Assembly: GCA_965279035.1 (NCBI GenBank)
Contig: OZ257142.1
Location: forward strand, 556,491-620,490
From: Bacteroidia bacterium
Lineage (GTDB): Bacteria; Bacteroidota; Bacteroidia; M30B66
Reading direction: 5' to 3'
DNA: 64,000 nucleotides
Shown: positions 9,826-53,828 of the stretch, piece by piece
Numbering within the stretch: the stretch's first letter is position 1
Layout: each line of letters starts with the position of its first letter
The notes under the pieces: generated by a model
Database searches by the model: none
What the model was told of the DNA's origin: nothing
What the model saw: only the letters and a program-made list of their open reading frames with translations
Translations under genes and position numbers: made by a program

Positions 9826-10665
9826 ATGTCAACTGTAGCAATTACTGCTAGTGATGTAAATAAACTCCGCCAAATGACTGGTGCGGGAATGATGGACTGC
9901 AAAAAAGCGCTTACCGAAGCCAATGGCGATTTCGAAGCGGCAGTTGATTTTCTTCGTAAAAAAGGTCAGAAGGTAGCTGGTAACCGTGCCGATCGCGATG
10001 CTAATGAAGGTGTTGTTATTGCTCGTGTTACTGCTGATAATACTCGTGGTGTTCTTGTTGTTCTTAATTGCGAAACAGATTTCGTAGCAAAGAATCAAGA
10101 CTTCATCGATTTCACAACCAAGATTTCTGATATCGCGCTGAATACAAAACCAGCTGATGTAACTGAACTTCTTGCAGCTTCGTTCGATGGTCTTCCGATT
10201 AGTGAACGTATCAACGAACAAGTTGGTAAAATTGGTGAGAAAATGGAACTTCATTACTCTCAATTAGAAGCTCCTTTCGTTGTTGCTTACAATCACCCAG
10301 GTTTCCGTTTAGCTACAATCGTTGCTTTTAATAAAGCAGGAGTTTCCGGAATTGAAACAGTTGCAAAAGACGTTTCTATGCAAGCTGCAGCAATGGCTCC
10401 AGTAGCTGTTGATAAAGACGATGTCGACACGAACACATTAGAACGCGAATTAGATATCGCTCGTGAGCAAATCCGTGCAGAAGGTAAACCAGAAGAAATG
10501 GTTGAGAAAATCGCTGCTGGTAAACTCAATAAGTTTTACAAAGACAACACACTCCTTAATCAGGAATTTGTGAAGGATAACAAAATGTCTGTTCGTCAAT
10601 ATGTTCAGACAATTGATAAAGACCTAACCGTTACTGCTTTTAAACGTCACGCTTTAGGAAATTAA
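9826..10665 (+). CDS. tsf: Translation elongation factor Ts
   Basis: 279 aa with the UBA-like N-terminus LRQMTGAGMMDCKKAL and CETDFVAKN. Confidence 0.95.
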   Translation: MSTVAITASDVNKLRQMTGAGMMDCKKALTEANGDFEAAVDFLRKKGQKVAGNRADRDANEGVVIARVTADNTRGVLVVLNCETDFVAKNQDFIDFTTKISDIALNTKPADVTELLAASFDGLPISERINEQVGKIGEKMELHYSQLEAPFVVAYNHPGFRLATIVAFNKAGVSGIETVAKDVSMQAAAMAPVAVDKDDVDTNTLERELDIAREQIRAEGKPEEMVEKIAAGKLNKFYKDNTLLNQEFVKDNKMSVRQYVQTIDKDLTVTAFKRHALGN

Positions 10666-27075: not shown

Positions 27076-27078
27076 AGT

Positions 27079-27151
27079 GGAGAATACCGGATTCGAACCG
27101 GTCGCCTCTTGCCTGCCAGGCAAGCGCTCTAGCCAAATGAGCTAATTCCCC
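27079..27151 (-). tRNA. tRNA-Ala (anticodon GGC)
   Basis: Reverse complement GGGGAATTAGCTCATTTGGCTAGAGCGCTTGCCTGGCAGGCAAGAGGCGACCGGTTCGAATCCGGTATTCTCCA. It forms a cloverleaf with G3:U70, anticodon loop CTGGCAG and a T-arm GGTTCGAATCC. CCA is not encoded. Confidence 0.85.
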
Positions 27152-43933: not shown

Positions 43934-45880
43934 TTAGTCGGATGTTAAAAGAATTCGTTGAGTGTAATTTTTTCCAATTGCTTGAACTTGGATTACATAT
44001 ACTCCGGCTGCTTTTGCGCCTTTAATATGCCAACTATTGTCAGCATTTTTTTTCCATTGAATTGGAACTTCTTGTCCCGAAATAGTAAACATTCGAATTG
44101 CTTGCGGTTTCAAAGAAAAACGCATGTTAATTCCACTCGAAATGCTGGCAGGATTTGGATAAAATACAGGAGCCTTTACATTCAACGCATCTGCATATAA
44201 AGGACTAATCAATTCGGTTAAACTATCGCCCGCAACAAGAACTGGTTTGTTGTCGGATGCATCAAACATGGTTAAAAATGAATTTATTTCAGAAGCATCC
44301 AAGGTGCGCATCTCCGAAAGCCAAGCAGGAGGAACTGTTTGATAATAAACTTTGGCAGTTGTTTTAAATGCACCACTATATCCTTGAAGTGAAACGCGAT
44401 AATGAATGATATCTTTTCCTGTTCCTTGTGTTGTGCCTGCTAAATTGAAATCGGGGTCTGAAGCTGCTTCTCCAACAATTTGAACAGTATCGTAAGATGC
44501 ATGTTGAGTCGAGAATCCAAGTGGTGGAATACGATTATCTTTCAAATGAACATCGGCTCTCTCGAGAATTGTTGTGAAATCACCATTCACATCTCCCATA
44601 TTCATTTCGTAAATCTGAACCTGATTTTCAGCATGAATCACATCATGATGAGGCTCCACAAATCCACCATAATTCACGATTTCGCCACTTTGATCAAATG
44701 TTCCTGAACGGAATAAGGTATCGCCAGCTTCTGTCGTTACTACAAATTCTACAAATGCTCTTCGAGATGGATAGCCACTTGGGAATTTATGTCCTGATTT
44801 ATTGGTTAACATTAATTCAAATCCAACACTGTCATCAAAAAATACAGGATCTGATAATTCAGCCTTCAACGTATTGTATCGTAAATTACGTGTGATAGTT
44901 GAAATGGTCGAATCGAAATTTGCTTCATTGGCGATAATACCCAGAGCATCTTTATTTCTACGAATTAAATCAACCATGAAACTATTCGCGCCAGCAAAAC
45001 TGTGTTGATTAAAAGGACTTCTTCCCAACAATGCCGTATAGCCAACAGCAATTTTAACGGGATCTTCCACTTGAGGCATGTGGCAGGTTTGACAGGTTTT
45101 TCCTTGTCCGGGATAACTCGAATTGAGCCATTCCTGAAAAGTAGCTTGTTCAACAAAAGTGCTTCCAGTGGGAACGCCTTGTAAATCGACAGTATGCGAT
45201 ATTAAAGTGTGACAAGGAGAGCAAAATCTTCCTTGACTAACATGTTCGCTGTATGTTGGGGTGAAATTTACGTACAACTGCATTGGTCCAAAAAAAGGAT
45301 TGATAAATGGGCCATACGCAACACGGTTTGTATCATACGGAATATCTCCTGTAAATCGACTACCTAAGCCATTCGTTCCTATCGCGTGGCAGCCAAGGCA
45401 TCCAACACCTGATAATCCGAGTGAATCATCTTGAAGATCTTCTAAAGTATAATGATCTGCCCCTTTAAAGAAAGCCGAAAAATGCCCCATTGGAGCGTGA
45501 CAATCGGTACATAAATTTTGAAGTTCAATGGCATGTGCTGGATTGGTCAAAACCTCTTGTCGAACCTTTGCTTTCCATAATGGATCAACACCGGCAAGTC
45601 CCATCATGGATGTTTCCCAATCATCGAAAAGATTAATGTCCACACCATCGAGCGTCACATTGGCTAGTCCTTGAGGATCGCGTCCATGGCATCCTTTACA
45701 GCGAGATGCGGGAAGAAAAATGGCAGTAGTATCAATACTGCGACTATGCATTTTAAGTAAAGCTTGAAAATGTCTGTTCGTGAGACTTTCTGGTTTTTCT
45801 GAACTCTCTCGTCCGGTAAGAGACACCGCTGCAAGCACGAACAAAAAAAGCGTACCAATGATGAGTAAACGTTTTTTCAC
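43934..45880 (-). CDS. Pentaheme c-type cytochrome with T9SS type A C-terminal sorting domain
   Basis: Signal peptide, five CxxCH motifs (CKGCH, CTDCH, CLGCH, CSPCH, CQTCH) in the N-terminal ~270 aa, a ~300 aa domain of unknown function, and C-terminal FYPNPASISSGIN...GVYVIQVQAIGKNYTQRILLTSD. Confidence 0.85.
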   Translation of the reverse strand: MKKRLLIIGTLFLFVLAAVSLTGRESSEKPESLTNRHFQALLKMHSRSIDTTAIFLPASRCKGCHGRDPQGLANVTLDGVDINLFDDWETSMMGLAGVDPLWKAKVRQEVLTNPAHAIELQNLCTDCHAPMGHFSAFFKGADHYTLEDLQDDSLGLSGVGCLGCHAIGTNGLGSRFTGDIPYDTNRVAYGPFINPFFGPMQLYVNFTPTYSEHVSQGRFCSPCHTLISHTVDLQGVPTGSTFVEQATFQEWLNSSYPGQGKTCQTCHMPQVEDPVKIAVGYTALLGRSPFNQHSFAGANSFMVDLIRRNKDALGIIANEANFDSTISTITRNLRYNTLKAELSDPVFFDDSVGFELMLTNKSGHKFPSGYPSRRAFVEFVVTTEAGDTLFRSGTFDQSGEIVNYGGFVEPHHDVIHAENQVQIYEMNMGDVNGDFTTILERADVHLKDNRIPPLGFSTQHASYDTVQIVGEAASDPDFNLAGTTQGTGKDIIHYRVSLQGYSGAFKTTAKVYYQTVPPAWLSEMRTLDASEINSFLTMFDASDNKPVLVAGDSLTELISPLYADALNVKAPVFYPNPASISSGINMRFSLKPQAIRMFTISGQEVPIQWKKNADNSWHIKGAKAAGVYVIQVQAIGKNYTQRILLTSD

Positions 45881-45946: not shown

Positions 45947-46657
45947 CTAATCGTAAATGTTTGCTGCCTTTACTAATTGCTGATGATTTAGAATAGAAAT
46001 GCGTTTTCCATTCAAAGCAATTACTTGATCATTCTTCAATTCACTCAATAATCGGATAGCTGTTTCGGTGGCAGTTCCCACAATGTTTGCAATATCTTCA
46101 CGACTAAGAGTAACACTTATTGTAACTCCATCTTGATCTAGACCATAGGTTTGTTGCAAATAAAGCAAAGCTTCTGCAACCCTTTCTCTTACTGGCTTTT
46201 GAGCTATATCTGTAATGCGGTGTTCGGCATGTTTTAAATCTTCAGAAAGAAGTTTCATCAATTGCATTGATAAAACACCGTTGCCTTCAACCAGTTTTAA
46301 AAAGGAAGATTGTGGAATAAAACAGATTTTACAATCATCTAGAGCTTCAGCACTGGAAGAATATTTATCGCCACTTAAAAGAGCTCGATATCCTAAAATA
46401 TCTCCACCACGAGCCAACCTTACAATTTGCTCTTTCCCTTCATCTCCAATACGAAAAATCTTGATTTTCCCATCGTTCACACAATAAAGACCGTGTGGAT
46501 ACGAACCCGCATTAAATATTATTTGACCTTTTTTGAAATTGCTACAGCCCTTCGTTTCATTTAAAGCCTCTAAATCATGACCATGTAAGTCACAAAAAAC
46601 GGAACGCGATCTATTTGAACAATGCTCACAATCAGGTTGGTCGTTCTTTCGAAGCAT
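45947..46657 (-). CDS. fnr: Crp/Fnr family transcriptional regulator with N-terminal Cys cluster (FnrL-like oxygen sensor)
   Basis: 236 aa with N-terminal C-x2-C-x8-C (DCEHCSNRSRSVFC), a cNMP-binding fold and a C-terminal HTH. Confidence 0.8.
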   Translation of the reverse strand: MLRKNDQPDCEHCSNRSRSVFCDLHGHDLEALNETKGCSNFKKGQIIFNAGSYPHGLYCVNDGKIKIFRIGDEGKEQIVRLARGGDILGYRALLSGDKYSSSAEALDDCKICFIPQSSFLKLVEGNGVLSMQLMKLLSEDLKHAEHRITDIAQKPVRERVAEALLYLQQTYGLDQDGVTISVTLSREDIANIVGTATETAIRLLSELKNDQVIALNGKRISILNHQQLVKAANIYD

Positions 46658-48605: not shown

Positions 48606-49175
48606 ATGAAAAAATGCATTCTATTTCTGCTCATCCCCTTTTTGCTCGTCTCTTTTACAGCAAAAGCACAAAGACATGCCGAGTCTTTTGAAAAGGGAAT
48701 TGTGTTAATTGATCTTAGTTCAAGTATTGGGGTTTATAAAAACCACGACTTTGTTACACAACGAATTCCACTTTTTCTCGGAGTAGATTATGGTGTTCAC
48801 AATGATATTGGCTTGGGCATTTTTGGAGGATGGAATCAACGCTCGTTTAAAACAGCAAAGTCTCCAGCTTACGATGTGAATTATTATTTCTATGGCGGTC
48901 GCTTAAGTATGCACCTTGCTCCCTATTTACGCCATCACACGATGTTGAAATTCAATCCCAAAATGGTGGATATTTATGCAACACTTTGGGCTGGTCGACA
49001 AGTAGCAAAACAGGTTTCTTTCTCTGGAAATAGTTTTATTGATTCCGGCGGAGTATCCATAATTGGAGGATATATTGGCGCTCGAATTTATACGATGTCT
49101 TGGCTTGGATTTATGGTTGAACTTGGAGCCGGACCTTACGGTTTGGTTAATTTCGGACTGTGTTCAAAATTCTAA
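48606..49175 (+). CDS. Outer membrane beta-barrel protein (porin-family-like)
   Basis: Signal peptide MKKCILFLLIPFLLVSFTAKAQ, alternating beta-strand pattern, and a C-terminal aromatic residue (KF). Confidence 0.65.
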   Translation: MKKCILFLLIPFLLVSFTAKAQRHAESFEKGIVLIDLSSSIGVYKNHDFVTQRIPLFLGVDYGVHNDIGLGIFGGWNQRSFKTAKSPAYDVNYYFYGGRLSMHLAPYLRHHTMLKFNPKMVDIYATLWAGRQVAKQVSFSGNSFIDSGGVSIIGGYIGARIYTMSWLGFMVELGAGPYGLVNFGLCSKF

Positions 49176-49185
49176 TTGAACTCCT

Positions 49186-49626
49186 TCAAAGTTCCTTTTG
49201 ATAAATCGCTTTACGTCCAGCAAACATCACGTACATCACTGGATAAGAAAGGAATGTCAAAACCCAATTATGTGCTTTAAACTGAATATCATCAATTATT
49301 ACAACATCCTTTTCTTGTTGGACAATGCGATGTGTATGTTCCCAATAGCTTAAGAAAAAAGGAAGTACAATCCCTTTATCTACAAAACAGCATTCTTTTT
49401 CTGTTTGAAAACTAGAAGTAATTCGGCTTTTCCAGGTTAACCAACTGAAAAAAAATCGCAAACGTATTTCAACAAGATCGTTTGTATTACAACCATCAAA
49501 TTGCACTAATTCGAAACGAGGAAATGGTGGTGCAAGTTTTAAGAATAATTCCTTGTCGAATTTTTTGAAAACGGAATTACAATTTCTGTTTTTAATTTGG
49601 GTTTGAAGGAGAATTCGCATTCTCAA
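49186..49626 (-). CDS. Hypothetical protein (Trp/Phe-rich), overlapping ispH stop by 4 nt
   Basis: 146 aa ORF apparently translationally coupled to ispH, with no recognised domain. Confidence 0.4.
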   Translation of the reverse strand: MRMRILLQTQIKNRNCNSVFKKFDKELFLKLAPPFPRFELVQFDGCNTNDLVEIRLRFFFSWLTWKSRITSSFQTEKECCFVDKGIVLPFFLSYWEHTHRIVQQEKDVVIIDDIQFKAHNWVLTFLSYPVMYVMFAGRKAIYQKEL

Positions 49627-50504
49627 AGAATCTCGAGTGCCGTTTTAACATCTTGCATCAACCACATGGGTGTTGAAGTAGCACCACAAATTCCAACAGT
49701 ATTGTCTTTTTCAAACCATGTTGGGTCTAGCTCATCTACACGACTAATGAAATACGTTTCAGGATTTTGGTCTTTACAAACGTTGAATAATACCTTTCCA
49801 TTTGATGATTTTGTACCACTTACAAAGAGTATTTTATCATACGATTTTGCAAATGTCCTGAGCTCTGAATCGCGGTCACTTACTTGACTACAAATGGTGT
49901 CGTGAGCATTTACTTTAATACCTTTCGATTCAAGTTGCTCTCGCGTTTCTTTGAATTTTTGTTTGCTCTTGGTCGTTTGTGTATAGAGTGTTATTTCTTT
50001 AGGAAGTTCTTTTCCATCCAGTTCTGAAATATCTGAAAATACAACACCTTCATTATTTATTTGGCCCATCAGACCGGTAACTTCCGCATGACCTTTTTTC
50101 CCCATTAAGAAGATGGTTTCTTTTTTATCAAATGATCCGCGAATGCGATTCTGGAGTTTTAGAACTACAGGGCAAGTTGCATCAATCAGAGTGATATTAT
50201 TTTCTATTGCTGTTTGATAAGTAGATGGTGGTTCTCCATGAGCACGTATTAATACACTTTCGTTTTTTAATTCTCTAAATGCATCATAATCAATGATCCG
50301 AAGACCTTTCGCTTTCAATCGTTTAACCTCTTCATCGTTATGAACTATGTCGCCAAGGCAATACAAATAGCCTTGTTCTTCCAATACATCTTGGGCCATT
50401 TCAATCGCGTAAACAACTCCAAAGCAGAAGCCTGAATTAGAATCTATACTGACTTTCAAATGAAGCGCGGACATGCTATAATTGATTTCTGATTGAATAA
50501 GCAA
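49623..50504 (-). CDS. ispH: 4-hydroxy-3-methylbut-2-enyl diphosphate reductase
   Basis: 293 aa with the LytB fold and conserved Cys/His motifs (GFCFGV, HNDEEV, ATCPVV). Confidence 0.9.
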   Translation of the reverse strand: MLIQSEINYSMSALHLKVSIDSNSGFCFGVVYAIEMAQDVLEEQGYLYCLGDIVHNDEEVKRLKAKGLRIIDYDAFRELKNESVLIRAHGEPPSTYQTAIENNITLIDATCPVVLKLQNRIRGSFDKKETIFLMGKKGHAEVTGLMGQINNEGVVFSDISELDGKELPKEITLYTQTTKSKQKFKETREQLESKGIKVNAHDTICSQVSDRDSELRTFAKSYDKILFVSGTKSSNGKVLFNVCKDQNPETYFISRVDELDPTWFEKDNTVGICGATSTPMWLMQDVKTALEIL

Positions 50505-50516
50505 TGAAACCTTTGG

Positions 50517-51368
50517 TCAAAGTAAATTGAGAGAATGACGTATGTAAGAACTCAGAATGAGCGAATATTTTCGTGCATTTGGAATTCGAATTCGTTCTTC
50601 AAGTACGCGATTGGGAGAGGAATTGATGATTTTTTTATACAAGGCGAAATAGTAAACGTATGCTACATAAACACCAAAGCGAGCTCCTTTGGGGAGTCCT
50701 TTAATTCCATTATATCCATCGGAAAAATCTTTGAGAATGTCTTCTTCGATAGCACGTTTATTCTCTTCAGTAAATTCGCTCATGTTTAAATGAGGGAAAT
50801 ACACTCTTCCGAGAGTATGATAGTCATTGTGTAGGTCACGTAGAAAATTGATTTTTTGAAAAGCAGAACCAAGCCTCATAGCTGGGTTTTTGAGTCTTTC
50901 GTACATCGATTGACTTCCTTCGCAAAAAACGCGTAAACACATTAAGCCAACTACTTCTGCCGAACCTAAAATGTATTTTTCGTATGCAGCCTGATCGTAT
51001 TGTACTTTTTCAAGATCCATTTCCATGCTTTTTAGAAATGTATCAATCAGTTCATCTTCGATCCCATAGTGATTAACCGTTTGCTGAAAACTATGCAGTA
51101 TAGGATTCAAACTAATTCCCCTACGTATAGCGAGAAATGTATCTCTTCTAAATTCTTCAATTAAAAGGGAAGCATCAGAACGATTGAAACTATCTACAAT
51201 TTCATCAGCAAATCGAACAAATGCGTAGAGTGTATAAACAGGATCTTGGAACCGTTTTGAAAGTGACTTTATTCCAAGTGTGAAAGAAGTACTATACCGA
51301 TGTGTTGTAAATCGACTGCAGCGAAGACTTACAAAATTGTAATCGATCATAGGTCCGTTGTTTTTCAA
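50517..51368 (-). CDS. crtB: Phytoene/squalene synthase family protein (probable phytoene synthase)
   Basis: 283 aa with the isoprenoid synthase Asp-rich motifs YAFVRFADEIVD and a trans-IPPS head-to-head fold. Confidence 0.85.
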   Translation of the reverse strand: MKNNGPMIDYNFVSLRCSRFTTHRYSTSFTLGIKSLSKRFQDPVYTLYAFVRFADEIVDSFNRSDASLLIEEFRRDTFLAIRRGISLNPILHSFQQTVNHYGIEDELIDTFLKSMEMDLEKVQYDQAAYEKYILGSAEVVGLMCLRVFCEGSQSMYERLKNPAMRLGSAFQKINFLRDLHNDYHTLGRVYFPHLNMSEFTEENKRAIEEDILKDFSDGYNGIKGLPKGARFGVYVAYVYYFALYKKIINSSPNRVLEERIRIPNARKYSLILSSYIRHSLNLL

Positions 51369-51393
51369 TCGAATTTAAGAGTCGTTGCCCTAC

Positions 51394-51900
51394 TTATTTA
51401 TTATATCCTTTTAACATCGACATTAATTGACGACGCGCTAAGAAAATTCTGCTTTTTACAGTACCAATAGGTAGATCTAAATAATCAGCTATTTCCTTGT
51501 ATTTATAGCCATCGAAATACATATTAAATGGAACCCGATATTCATCTTGTAGCATTTCAATTTTCTTCAAAATTTCACGTTCAGAGTACTTTGACTCTGG
51601 GGCGAAACTTTGCGTTTGTTGAGGAATATTGAGGAAATACAAATCTTTTGTTGAATCAACAATTGTATTCGTTTTAACTGCTCTACGATAATTATTAATA
51701 AAGATGTTTTTCATGATGGTATACAACCATGCTTTCAAATTTGTTTTTTCAACAAATCGATGGCGGTTGCTGATTGCCTTCAGCAGCGTTTCTTGAAGAA
51801 GGTCTTTTGCTTCTTCATCATTGGAGGTAAGGTTTAATGCAAAGTATTTTAAGGGCTTGCTTAAACTCAAAACTTCGGAGTTGAATTCAAATGCTGACAT
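51394..51900 (-). CDS. RNA polymerase ECF-type sigma-70 factor
   Basis: 168 aa with sigma-70 region 2 (LLQETLLKAI, YTIMKNIFINNYRR) and region 4 (IADYLDLPIGTVKSRIFLARRQL). Confidence 0.85.
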   Translation of the reverse strand: MSAFEFNSEVLSLSKPLKYFALNLTSNDEEAKDLLQETLLKAISNRHRFVEKTNLKAWLYTIMKNIFINNYRRAVKTNTIVDSTKDLYFLNIPQQTQSFAPESKYSEREILKKIEMLQDEYRVPFNMYFDGYKYKEIADYLDLPIGTVKSRIFLARRQLMSMLKGYNK

Positions 51901-52086
51901 CTCGTTTTGTTTAATCTTTGAACAAATGTATTAAACATTATGGGATAATCAACATTCTGTTTAAGAATTAACTTAAAATACATGTACCAACATATATGAA
52001 ATTCAAGATTAACCATGTAAATAGCTTAACATCAATAAAATAGATTCAACTGAAAAAATGTTAAATTTCATTTTAGGCCATTAAAA

Positions 52087-52120
52087 AATGCTATTGAAGG
52101 CAAAAGTTCTTCAATAGCAT
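52087..52120. terminator. Perfect 13-bp inverted repeat AATGCTATTGAAG-N8-CTTCAATAGCATT; terminator of the carH-like gene and/or operator in the sigma-crtB promoter region
   Basis: Read directly. It is 46 nt past the carH stop and followed by a T5 run on the minus strand. Confidence 0.6.
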
Positions 52121-52165
52121 TCGAAAAATTGTTGATTCTATGATTAGATTATTTAAACAGAGAGT

Positions 52166-53071
52166 TTATTTCTTTTGCTCTGCAATTTCAATTAAGTCGA
52201 AAACAGATTTGATATTTGTTACATTTTTCCAATGGAACTTAATTTCGCAGGTTTGTGCGCCAGCAACTAGAAGCTTAGTGCTTCCAATTAAACCAGAGAT
52301 TTTATCGATATATGCTACGATAGAATCTGGTGAATAAGCAGCCGTAAAAAATGTCAAAATGTACTTTGGATGGTATTTGTTGCAATAGCTTAAAACATCT
52401 TCAAGCGGAACAGTTTGTCCTAAATAAATTACTCGTTTTCCTCTTACTTTTAATATGTATTTTGAAAACAAGAGCCCGATTTCGTGTAATTCTCCATCGG
52501 GAAGATACAAGAGCCAATCATCAGCATCTGGAGCAGCCACACCCGAATAACCATCCACTGCTACAAGGATTTTTTTGCGAATCATGTTGGTCATGAAATG
52601 CTCTTGAAAAACACTTGCTTCTCCAGTTCTCCACATGATTCCCACTTTTTGTAAAAATGGAATGAGAATGTTGAGCATCGTTTGTTCAAACCCATATTTT
52701 AGGGAACTTGTACTTATTACTTTTTCAAAACGAGCCTCATCCAATTCAATCATAGCAATGACTAAACTATCGGTCTGCGCTTCAAAAAAATGATCAATCG
52801 AAACAGGATGTTGAACCATATCCTGAATTCGTTTGCAAATTTCATCCTGATTGAGTTTAACCAAATGAGATATTTTTCCTCCATGACGAATCAATAAGGA
52901 AATGTTCAATAGAATTTTTAACTCTTGATCGTTGTATAAGCGAATGTTTGTATCGGTTCTGTCGGGATTTAGCAAATTGTAGCGTTGCTCCCATATGCGA
53001 ATCGTATGTGCTTTTATTCCGGAAAGACGCTCCAGATCTTTTATTGTATATTTTGAAGTCATTGAATGCAT
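52166..53071 (-). CDS. carH: MerR family transcriptional regulator with C-terminal cobalamin (B12)-binding domain (CarH/LitR-like light sensor)
   Basis: N-terminal MerR HTH (YTIKDLERLSGIKAHTIRIWEQRY) and a C-terminal B12-binding Rossmann-like domain (GELHEIGLLFSKYILKVRGKRVIYLG). Confidence 0.8.
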   Translation of the reverse strand: MHSMTSKYTIKDLERLSGIKAHTIRIWEQRYNLLNPDRTDTNIRLYNDQELKILLNISLLIRHGGKISHLVKLNQDEICKRIQDMVQHPVSIDHFFEAQTDSLVIAMIELDEARFEKVISTSSLKYGFEQTMLNILIPFLQKVGIMWRTGEASVFQEHFMTNMIRKKILVAVDGYSGVAAPDADDWLLYLPDGELHEIGLLFSKYILKVRGKRVIYLGQTVPLEDVLSYCNKYHPKYILTFFTAAYSPDSIVAYIDKISGLIGSTKLLVAGAQTCEIKFHWKNVTNIKSVFDLIEIAEQKK

Positions 53072-53231
53072 TTCCGATTATTCGCTATAGCACATCACTG
53101 AGCGTAATTAAAATTCTTTGATTCAAACAGATGTACTTTTAAAATGTTTAATCCCATTTAAAAGGAGTTTAAACTAAGCAAAACAAACCTATTTGAATTA
53201 GTAAGAGTTTGAAATGATAAGAATCAGTTTT

Positions 53232-53828
53232 TTATTTTGAATTCGATTGGGAATACAATTTAGCAATGTATTTACCCAATATGTCAAATTCAAGATTCAC
53301 TTGATTCCCAACAATCAGGTTTTTGAGATTAGTATTCTCCCATGTATAAGGAATAATAGCTACTTCAAAGGAATTATTTTCAGAATTAATAACCGTTAAA
53401 CTAACTCCATTCACACAGATTGATCCTTTCTCAACGGTGATAAATCCATTTTTAGCTTCATAAAAAAACTTCAACCGCCAACTACCATTTTCATCCCTTA
53501 TCTCATCCAAACTAGCAGTTGTATCAACATGGCCTTGAACTAAATGGCCATCGAGTCGTCCATTCCATTGTAAACAACGTTCAAGATTAACTTCATCGCC
53601 CGTTTTTAAATTCGAAAGATTGGTTTTGCTGAGTGTTTCTTTTACTGCTGTGACGAAGTAAAAATCCCCTTCAACTTTAGTTACGGTCAAGCAAACTCCA
53701 TTATGTGACAAACTTTGATCAACCTTCAATTCATTCGTAAAAGGACAGGATAATTTAAACGTAGTGTTTTCGGCTTCAACTATACGATCATGCACTTTAC
53801 CTAAGCCTTCTATAATTCCAGTAAACAT
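53232..53828 (-). CDS. ribE: Riboflavin synthase alpha subunit
   Basis: MFTGIIEGLGKV N-terminus with two lumazine-binding repeats (GVCLTV / GVSLTV). The ORF extends 10 codons further upstream to 53858. Confidence 0.9.
   Translation of the reverse strand: MFTGIIEGLGKVHDRIVEAENTTFKLSCPFTNELKVDQSLSHNGVCLTVTKVEGDFYFVTAVKETLSKTNLSNLKTGDEVNLERCLQWNGRLDGHLVQGHVDTTASLDEIRDENGSWRLKFFYEAKNGFITVEKGSICVNGVSLTVINSENNSFEVAIIPYTWENTNLKNLIVGNQVNLEFDILGKYIAKLYSQSNSK

Follow-up and report, generated by a model that had tools for sequence, protein, structure and literature searches.

A probable LitR/LitS-style photoregulatory cassette with carotenoid cargo in a Bacteroidia bacterium

The LitR-LitS relay has been described since 2005. 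In Streptomyces coelicolor, adenosyl-B12-bound LitR controls LitS, a sigma factor of the extracytoplasmic function (ECF) type, which transcribes the carotenoid (crt) genes, and the switch needs only litR, litS and one target promoter (PMC11519972). The related CarH proteins are recognized by an RxWERRY recognition helix, a Wx9EH motif and the sequence D/ExHx2G-x41-SxT/V-x22-27-GG; an intact Wx9EH caps the adenosyl group and tells light-sensing CarH from B12-independent CarA, and the characterized CarH operators have a TnnACA core and overlap promoter elements (PMC9304148). Within the searchable literature, we found no description of a B12-photoreceptor/ECF pair or of its operator in Bacteroidota, and none of a regulator, operator or sigma relay for light-induced pigmentation in this phylum. 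Chryseobacterium lacus is yellow only in the light, and the authors of that report could find neither car nor lit genes (PMC7064467); an Echinicola merR-rpoE-crt-ispH cluster has been published and listed descriptively (PMC8683446); and the paper that reclassified the ECF sigma factors gives MerR-like neighbors only for groups with an anti-sigma factor and does not mention B12. Here, we analyze a locus in a 64,000-nucleotide (nt) stretch of a freshwater Bacteroidia bacterium (GTDB lineage Bacteria; Bacteroidota; Bacteroidia; M30B66; assembly GCA_965279035.1, contig OZ257142.1, forward-strand positions 556,491 to 620,490), hereafter the window, in which the gene for a MerR-B12 regulator lies beside an ECF-type sigma factor gene that is followed by crtB and ispH. 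We consider it probable that this locus is a LitR/LitS-style photoregulatory cassette with carotenoid cargo.

The locus comprises 5 genes on the minus strand within 53071..49186, all of which a sequence-only reading of the window had already listed at these positions. They encode, in this order, the CarH/LitR-like regulator (301 aa, 52166..53071), the ECF-type sigma factor (168 aa, 51394..51900), the phytoene synthase CrtB (277 aa, 50517..51350, in an open reading frame (ORF) spanning 50517..51368), the 4-hydroxy-3-methylbut-2-enyl diphosphate (HMBPP) reductase IspH (283 aa, 49623..50474, ORF 49623..50504) and a 144-aa SRPBCC/Bet v 1-fold protein (49186..49620, ORF 49186..49626). The refined ATG starts of the last 3 genes, at 51350, 50474 and 49620, respectively, are identical to those of the public gene calls. 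The regulator stop codon is 265 nt from the sigma start; a gap of 43 nt then separates sigma from crtB, 42 nt lie between crtB and ispH, and only 2 nt between ispH and the gene of the 144-aa protein. Because the latter 2 gaps are short, the tight coupling of crtB, ispH and the then unassigned fifth ORF that the sequence-only reading had described holds, and its assignments of the sigma factor, crtB and ispH were likewise upheld.

From its sequence, the regulator is a CarH/LitR-like MerR-B12 protein that keeps the CarH signature residues. Running Pfam on 52166..53071 returned both of the domains that had been proposed for it (MerR_1, 7e-13; B12-binding_2, 8e-10), and its architecture consists of a MerR winged helix-turn-helix, a four-helix bundle with the Wx9EH motif and a B12-binding Rossmann domain. 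Among solved structures, those of Thermus thermophilus CarH (TtCarH; 3whp and 5c8d, approximately 2e-21) match best, with 80 bits to the TtCarH chain. W147-x9-E157-H158 aligns residue for residue with W131/E141-H142 of TtCarH, and E194-L-H196-E-I-G199 aligns with the region of its lower-ligand His (H177); the B12-binding motif on which the proposed architecture depended (E194-x-H196-x-x-G199) is thus kept. For a wider comparison, 28 distinct full-length regulators (≥280 aa) encoded beside related sigma genes were aligned together with TtCarH (n = 29). Wx9EH is invariant in all 29 sequences, and the cobalt-ligand His of ExHxxG is found in 28, the exception being locus L057, which has Tyr. The recognition helix reads R25-I-W-E-Q-R-Y31, with R25, I26, W27, E28, R30 and Y31 invariant in 18 family members. 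The other invariant residues are W147, E157, H158, E194, H196, G199 and G271, the last of these at the GG position of the distal B12 motif, in which T240 (≥90% conserved) occupies the Ser position; the family profile can be aligned, as far as approximately residue 275, with the cobalamin domains of MetH and MtaC. The best NCBIfam match is the CarH equivalog NF052513 (103.9 bits, below the cutoff of 400), and we therefore class the regulator, on sequence grounds, as a divergent CarH relative rather than as an equivalog of the curated NCBIfam set. The aberrant homolog, at L057:425-1396, stands beside a sigma promoter without the inverted repeat described below, and may be a degenerate or B12-independent (CarA-like) variant.

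The 265 nt between the regulator and sigma genes hold a terminator, a promoter and a predicted operator. The terminator, at 52080..52122 on the minus strand, consists of a 14-bp stem followed by a U-run. Its hairpin folds with −19.7 kcal/mol (z = −3.7; 0 of 200 shuffled sequences folded as well), and a hairpin with a T-run occurs at the matching position in several relatives, including L005, L013, L015 and L016. Because this terminator follows its stop codon, the regulator gene appears to form a transcription unit of its own. Housekeeping promoters of Bacteroidota have a consensus of TTG at −33, 17 to 21 nt, and TAnnTTTG at −7. Searching 49000-53400 for a full TTG-N17-21-TAnnTTTG match returned a single one on the minus strand, at 51952..51923: the TTG lies at 51952..51950 and is followed by a 19-nt spacer and the −7 box TACATTTG at 51930..51923, 22 nt 5' of the sigma start codon. 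This −7 box is invariant in 9 loci of the window's close clade. The Bacteroidota consensus was used in place of a generic sigma-70 promoter scan, which is unsuited to this phylum and gave 12 matches, compared to 19.8 in shuffled sequence.

An inverted repeat, TGTTTAATACATTTGTTCAAAGATTAAACA, at 51937..51908 (minus strand) overlaps the sigma promoter, spanning the −7 box and covering the likely transcription start. Its form, TGTTTAA-N16-TTAAACA, occurs once in the window, versus 0.04 copies expected by chance, and each arm contains TAAACA, which corresponds to the TnnACA core of the characterized CarH operators. Across the 9 close-clade loci, an invariant block reads TGTTTAATA-(C/T)-(A/C)-TTTG, followed by 9 variable bases, a conserved A/G and TTAAACAA, while the remaining spacer varies freely. 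In 7 of these 9 loci, a second copy of the repeat lies upstream, giving 4 half-sites in total; the window has 3, and the additional TTAAACA at 51958..51964 (minus strand), noticed when the close-clade loci were compared, looks like a remnant of the second repeat. A single half-site (TTAAACA or TGTTTAA) is also present 5' of the regulator gene in about half of the loci, at the matching position in approximately 12 relatives of the window locus; the window-wide frequency predicts approximately 0.03 per 130 nt. In the window, it lies at 53151..53145, downstream of a −7-like box TAGGTTTG at 53191..53184 on the same (minus) strand, and L053 has three such half-sites; judging by these sequences, the regulator may be weakly autoregulated. 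A separate palindromic element, ATATGT-N3-5-TACA, lies at 51982-51997 on the minus strand, approximately 20-45 nt 5' of the operator block. It recurs in 5 of the 9 close-clade loci (the window, L010, L011, L013 and L015), and may be the site of another regulator or a promoter-upstream element.

The distribution of the repeat was then compared with that of the regulator. A genome scan with the sigma protein, taking one genome per species, yielded 80 loci, to which loci reached via homologs of the SRPBCC protein were added; 82 loci with enough upstream sequence were scored for a repeat within 150 nt of the sigma start and for a MerR-B12 gene among the 2 ORFs 5' of the sigma gene. ORFs in these loci were called mechanically, their habitats are those suggested by isolate names only, and the taxonomic labels of the metagenome-assembled genomes (MAGs) among them are unreliable, some loci being labeled Chitinophaga pinensis or Competibacteraceae. 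The repeat was present in 27 of the 32 loci with a MerR-B12 gene upstream, compared to 8 of the 50 loci without one (Fisher p = 6e-10, a test that treats these related loci as independent and therefore overstates their independence). With spacers of 8-24 nt allowed, 29 loci had 16 nt between the arms and 4 loci had 17 nt, and in 22 out of 33 loci the left arm overlapped a complete TTG...TAnnTTTG promoter. In 2 of the 8 loci with the repeat only, L008 and L009, the regulator gene lies approximately 8 kb away. The others (L026, L036, L049, L055, L086 and L088) have the full repeat and no MerR-B12 gene in the 2 ORFs upstream; as in L008, the regulator gene may lie elsewhere. Two of these loci, L049 and L088, are from Portibacter isolates, and L055 has too little upstream sequence to judge.

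Two natural losses point in the same direction as this association. The first is a gut/faecal Bacteroidales clade that is nested within the clade having both regulator and repeat, lacks both, and has a plain TTGACA-type promoter instead; indeed, all 8 MAG loci of gut or faecal origin (by their titles) are without regulator and repeat. The second is L017 (sigma gene at 10001-10504 of 1-20504, 80% identical), which is nested within the window's own clade and has the gene order ribE-sigma-unk189-aspS. It lacks both the MerR-B12 gene and crtB-ispH-SRPBCC, and retains 2 TGTTTAA half-sites in the same orientation and no TTAAACA arm. Given the co-occurrence with the regulator, the fixed spacing, the TnnACA core in both arms and these losses, we read TGTTTAA-N16-TTAAACA as the predicted operator of the MerR-B12 protein.

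The census also changes how the locus is delimited. The regulator-sigma pair was found in 32 of 82 related loci, in at least 5 branches of a rough sigma tree (a quick neighbor-joining tree). Its neighbors are usually housekeeping-type genes, without a crt gene inside 8 kb. The sequence-only reading had presented the 5 genes as one compact module; all 5 genes are present as listed, but only the regulator-sigma pair is a conserved unit, which by these comparisons is widespread in Bacteroidota, with the crt genes as lineage-specific cargo. This cargo was found in 3 layouts. The window's clade has sigma-crtB-ispH-SRPBCC, L053 and L058 have sigma-terminator-crtI-crtB-cyclase (with the cyclase assigned by eye), and L008 has SRPBCC-sigma followed by divergent crtI and crtB, with crtZ nearby. 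That crt genes have been joined to the pair in 3 layouts, plus the published Echinicola one, supports the photoregulatory reading at the level of gene order. Between the divergent crtI and crtB of L008, at L008:10590-10664, lies another inverted repeat, AAAACAG-N13-CTGTTTG, that resembles the operator arms; the crt genes there may, like the sigma gene, be direct targets of the regulator.

The sigma factor consists of regions 2 and 4 only, with no extension (Sigma70_r2, 3e-14; Sigma70_r4_2, 1.5e-14), and passes the sigma70-ECF superfamily model TIGR02937 (74.8 bits versus a cutoff of 42.9), while no NCBIfam subfamily or equivalog model reached its cutoff. Its identity amounts to 80-96% within the clade and 49-70% across Bacteroidota, with many database matches above 80%. 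The products of the neighboring genes are far less conserved within the clade (regulator 57-81%, CrtB 69-79%, SRPBCC protein 37-61%). Such conservation is unusual for an ECF sigma factor, and suggests that its regulon is constrained and probably broad. In line with the sequence-only reading, no anti-sigma gene adjoins the sigma gene in the window, nor in any of the 80 related loci that the genome scan yielded. The candidates that were considered and rejected were the 2 genes found most often downstream of sigma (MutY-like and HPPK, clusters c9 and c10), as well as DUF2520, HAD, an outer-membrane beta-barrel, the convergent DUF7935 and a sigma-54 activator, none of which has an anti-sigma domain. 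The DUF7935 protein, of 173 aa and with an N-terminal hydrophobic segment, is absent from the window and lies near the regulator-sigma pair in L024, L025, L031, L038, L052 and L069, which are labeled Bacteroidales; in L025, L038 and L052, it directly follows the sigma gene on the opposite strand.

CrtB matches Pfam SQS_PSY (7e-40) and has 2 DxxxD aspartate-rich motifs, DEIVD and DLHND. It remains below all NCBIfam equivalog cutoffs for CrtB, HpnC and HpnD; its homologs in L008, L053 and L058, at 47-57% identity, adjoin crtI, and in L053 crtB is followed by a gene for a protein with a lycopene-cyclase domain (assigned by eye, no tool). IspH is assigned by NF002187 (354.2 bits versus a cutoff of 276), TIGR00216 (225 versus 187.85) and Pfam LYTB (2e-84). 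This enzyme carries out the last step of the methylerythritol phosphate (MEP) pathway. Tao and coworkers are said to have found ispH in the crt cluster of Algoriphagus sp. KK10202C as well, in 2006. No other crt genes, including crtI and crtZ, were found by tblastn in the 64-kb window. In the 9 clade members, gaps of 15-45 nt and 9-42 nt separate sigma, crtB and ispH, and neither a terminator nor a TAnnTTTG box was found between these genes in any of them. The earlier suggestion that crtB and ispH are co-transcribed is therefore plausible, here together with sigma, and we predict from this layout that sigma-crtB-ispH-SRPBCC form a four-gene operon.

Taken together, these observations allow a concrete mechanism to be proposed. 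The regulator would be a CarH/LitR-type repressor with adenosylcobalamin (AdoCbl) as its chromophore, transcribed alone up to its terminator. In the dark, we infer, an AdoCbl-bound oligomer would sit on the inverted repeat, over the −7 box and the start site, and block the four-gene operon; light would photolyse AdoCbl, and the repressor would leave the DNA. Phytoene synthase and IspH would then be made directly by read-through from the sigma promoter, and because both come from the same read-through, the committed step and the precursor supply would rise together. The sigma factor would need no anti-sigma partner, because its abundance would be set by transcription. It would in turn direct further genes elsewhere, crtI, crtY and crtZ (none of them in the window) being the most plausible, and perhaps also a wider photo-oxidative stress regulon. 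The model gains support from the Streptomyces relay, because that relay works with a regulator, a sigma factor and a target promoter only.

Several results weigh against this mechanism. The regulator falls far short of the NCBIfam CarH cutoff given above, and Pfam B12-binding PF02310 gives no match to it; its later B12 motif deviates, with Thr for Ser and A-G for G-G; and the residue after its Trp is not His, unlike in TtCarH, so that a TtCarH-style bis-His light state cannot form. The operator of the window is more degenerate than that of most relatives, with 3 half-sites rather than 4, and is an inverted repeat with a 16-nt spacer, whereas characterized CarH operators are tandem direct repeats. 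The sigma family is also found without the regulator and without crt genes. Moreover, no sigma-dependent promoter was identified: the regions 5' of crtI/crtB in L008, L053 and L058 were inspected and have scattered operator-like half-sites and no shared ECF-type target promoter. Finally, ispH is essential in bacteria that use the MEP pathway, yet here lies in a repressible operon, a paradox that the sequence-only reading passed over. Full repression in the dark would be lethal, unless the promoter is leaky, ispH has a non-consensus internal promoter, or a second ispH copy exists. A search for an internal promoter in the 9 clade members returned no TAnnTTTG box or conserved block 5' of ispH. 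As L017 has no ispH at this locus, the gene must lie elsewhere in that genome.

Of the other ways to read these data, the one that fares best extends the mechanism rather than replacing it. The regulator-sigma pair and its fixed operator TGTTTAA-N16/17-TTAAACA could be an ancient, phylum-wide Bacteroidota switch that places a conserved, anti-sigma-less ECF sigma factor under AdoCbl/light control, and to which crt genes are one repeatedly recruited cargo; we put this forward tentatively, as somewhat less likely than not to hold in full. The pair is present in at least 5 branches of the sigma tree, including lineages labeled as anaerobic Bacteroidales without nearby crt genes, and it seems to have been lost in gut lineages. 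If this is true, the cassette would be the missing upstream regulator of an "orphan" Bacteroidota ECF group, possibly of the SigH/ECF114 type, and light sensing would be tied to a general photo-oxidative stress regulon.

It is rather unlikely that the adjacency is largely incidental, in the sense that the sigma factor is a general Bacteroidota stress sigma, possibly related to the oxygen-induced, anti-sigma-less SigH/ECF114 type, that the regulator controls sigma only, and that crtB-ispH-SRPBCC are transcribed constitutively from weak non-consensus promoters. In approximately 50 of the 82 sigma loci, regulator and crt genes are both missing and the neighbors are of housekeeping type; L017 keeps sigma at its ribE/aspS position without the regulator and crtB-ispH-SRPBCC, the SRPBCC gene is usually found elsewhere, and the essential ispH argues for some constitutive transcription. 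These points have to be set against the short gaps without terminators or TAnnTTTG boxes throughout the clade, against the order sigma-crtB-ispH, which is kept across the clade despite protein divergence to 57-87% identity, and against the independent joining of crt genes to the regulator-sigma pair in other layouts.

We give slightly less credence still to a regulator that senses not light but the availability of AdoCbl/B12, or redox state via its corrinoid, with the sigma regulon following cofactor status. The pair and the repeat do occur in many MAGs labeled Bacteroidales, Lentimicrobiaceae and others with no crt gene within 8 kb, one of them with the isolate prefix CSMAG, and the downstream genes in these crt-free loci have no obvious link to light. 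However, the intact Wx9EH, the published discriminator of light sensors (PMC9304148), is invariant here, and crt cargo was recruited at least 3 times. The 8 gut/faecal MAG loci without regulator and repeat also fit a sensor that would be useless in permanent darkness, with the proviso that their labels are unreliable.

The 144-aa protein has no Pfam or NCBIfam match, and none of 21 family members scanned against Pfam had one even at E ≤ 1. Its AlphaFold2 model (predicted local distance difference test 95.1, predicted template modeling score 0.87) has the helix-grip order, with a seven-stranded antiparallel sheet round a long C-terminal helix. Foldseek returned 213 PDB matches at E ≤ 1e-3, the top 50 of which are exclusively Bet v 1/PR-10, norcoclaurine synthase, aromatase/cyclase (ARO/CYC) and PYL proteins (template modeling scores of 0.5-0.74); among the closest named folds are cytokinin-binding and PR-10 proteins, norcoclaurine synthase, the ZhuI aromatase/cyclase and PYL receptors. 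JGI independently labels homologs of this protein "ligand-binding SRPBCC". The modeled structure is thus that of an SRPBCC/Bet v 1 fold, which suggests a pocket that takes up a hydrophobic ligand. The sequence-only reading had asked whether this ORF always accompanies crtB, and the answer is no: of 8 homolog contexts sampled, 2 are crt-linked and 6 have no nearby sigma, regulator or crt gene. We therefore treat the gene as a loosely attached passenger of the operon. That the protein is instead a functional partner, for example a carotenoid or isoprenoid binder acting on sigma like an unconventional anti-sigma factor, seems very improbable: the predicted hydrophobic-ligand pocket, the translational coupling to ispH in the clade, and the position directly 5' of sigma and beside crtZ, crtI and crtB in L008 would fit such a role, but those 6 unrelated contexts, the mere 37% tblastn match in L014, where no ORF clusters with the family, and a clade identity of 37-61%, compared to 80-96% for sigma, do not.

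The genes that flank the locus are ordinary. On one side, they encode riboflavin synthase, a CHU_C protein and RecQ; on the other, a conserved 189-aa signal-peptide protein, aspartyl-tRNA synthetase (AspRS), a CRP/FNR regulator and a multihaem protein. No riboswitch or other known RNA was found at the locus; a scan of the whole window with Rfam gathering thresholds returned only a tRNA, at 27078..27151. The CRP/FNR-type regulator (45947-46657, minus strand) has an N-terminal Cys-rich stretch, CEHCSNRSRSVFCD, and lies beside the gene for the 648-aa multihaem-like protein, which has a type IX secretion system sorting tail (43934-45880, minus strand); the 2 genes are syntenic in L014 and L016. 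Thermus uses the CRP/FNR activator LdrP alongside LitR; we found no evidence that ties the CRP/FNR gene of the window to the sigma-crtB module. The 189-aa protein (48606-49175, plus strand) has no Pfam match and ends in an aromatic residue, as outer-membrane beta-barrels do. In most loci of the clade, its gene runs convergently to the operon, and L017 has it too. The Echinicola crt cluster likewise ends with an outer-membrane protein gene, oma87 (PMC8683446).

The model provides a concrete regulatory scheme for light-induced pigmentation in Bacteroidota, and singles out one promoter, one operator and a limited number of residues for mutation. The compact set of regulator, operator and sigma factor could also be put to use for switching expression in Bacteroidota with green/blue light, as LitR-LitS has been in Streptomyces. 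The presence of ispH in the operon suggests that MEP flux is raised together with the committed carotenoid step, which would be useful for metabolic engineering, and raises the question of how an essential gene tolerates a repressible promoter.

The kind of system that we describe is already known, from both the CarH/LitR photoreceptors and the LitR-LitS relay, and the module is well supported but largely expected. From its sequence, the variant features are the tandem genes, the inverted-repeat predicted operator, and ispH and the SRPBCC gene as cargo. The closest likeness is to LitR-LitS (PMC11519972), with which the locus shares a regulator gene beside an ECF sigma gene, no need for an anti-sigma factor, a carotenoid output and, as predicted from the repeat over it, the sigma promoter as the regulated target. 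It differs in that its genes are in tandem with a terminator between them, whereas litR and litS are divergent and share a bidirectional promoter region; in that its predicted operator is an inverted repeat over a Bacteroidota −33/−7 promoter; and in that crtB and ispH are predicted to be co-transcribed with sigma, rather than being reached solely via sigma-specific promoters, in another phylum. With the CarH of T. thermophilus (3whp, 5c8d-f) and the CarH/LitR of Bacillus megaterium, the regulator has in common the three-module architecture, the recognition helix, Wx9EH and the His of ExHxxG, as well as, in its predicted operator, a TnnACA half-site core overlapping promoter elements. Those proteins, however, bind 3 or 4 direct repeats of 11 bp in tandem and regulate the crt or carH promoters directly, with no sigma relay, and TtCarH has a His after its Trp that is missing from the family described here, to which its sequence similarity is modest. 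In Myxococcus xanthus, a B12-type MerR repressor and an ECF sigma factor likewise take part in light-induced carotenogenesis (CarH/CarA and CarQ/CarR), but there CarQ is held by the membrane anti-sigma factor CarR until singlet oxygen frees it, and this pathway is distinct from that of CarH; the present locus has no anti-sigma factor, and its repressor appears to act on the sigma gene itself. ECF114, to which Porphyromonas gingivalis SigH belongs, is an anti-sigma-less Bacteroidota ECF group that is oxygen-induced at the level of transcription (PMC7826278, PMC8999054), and we regard its likeness, which consists of the phylum, the missing anti-sigma factor and a presumed transcriptional control, as a lead. 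The Echinicola cluster (PMC8683446) also combines a MerR regulator with an ECF-type sigma factor, crt genes and ispH; its description comes without a B12 or light interpretation and without an operator, and it holds the full pathway, while the window has crtB alone.

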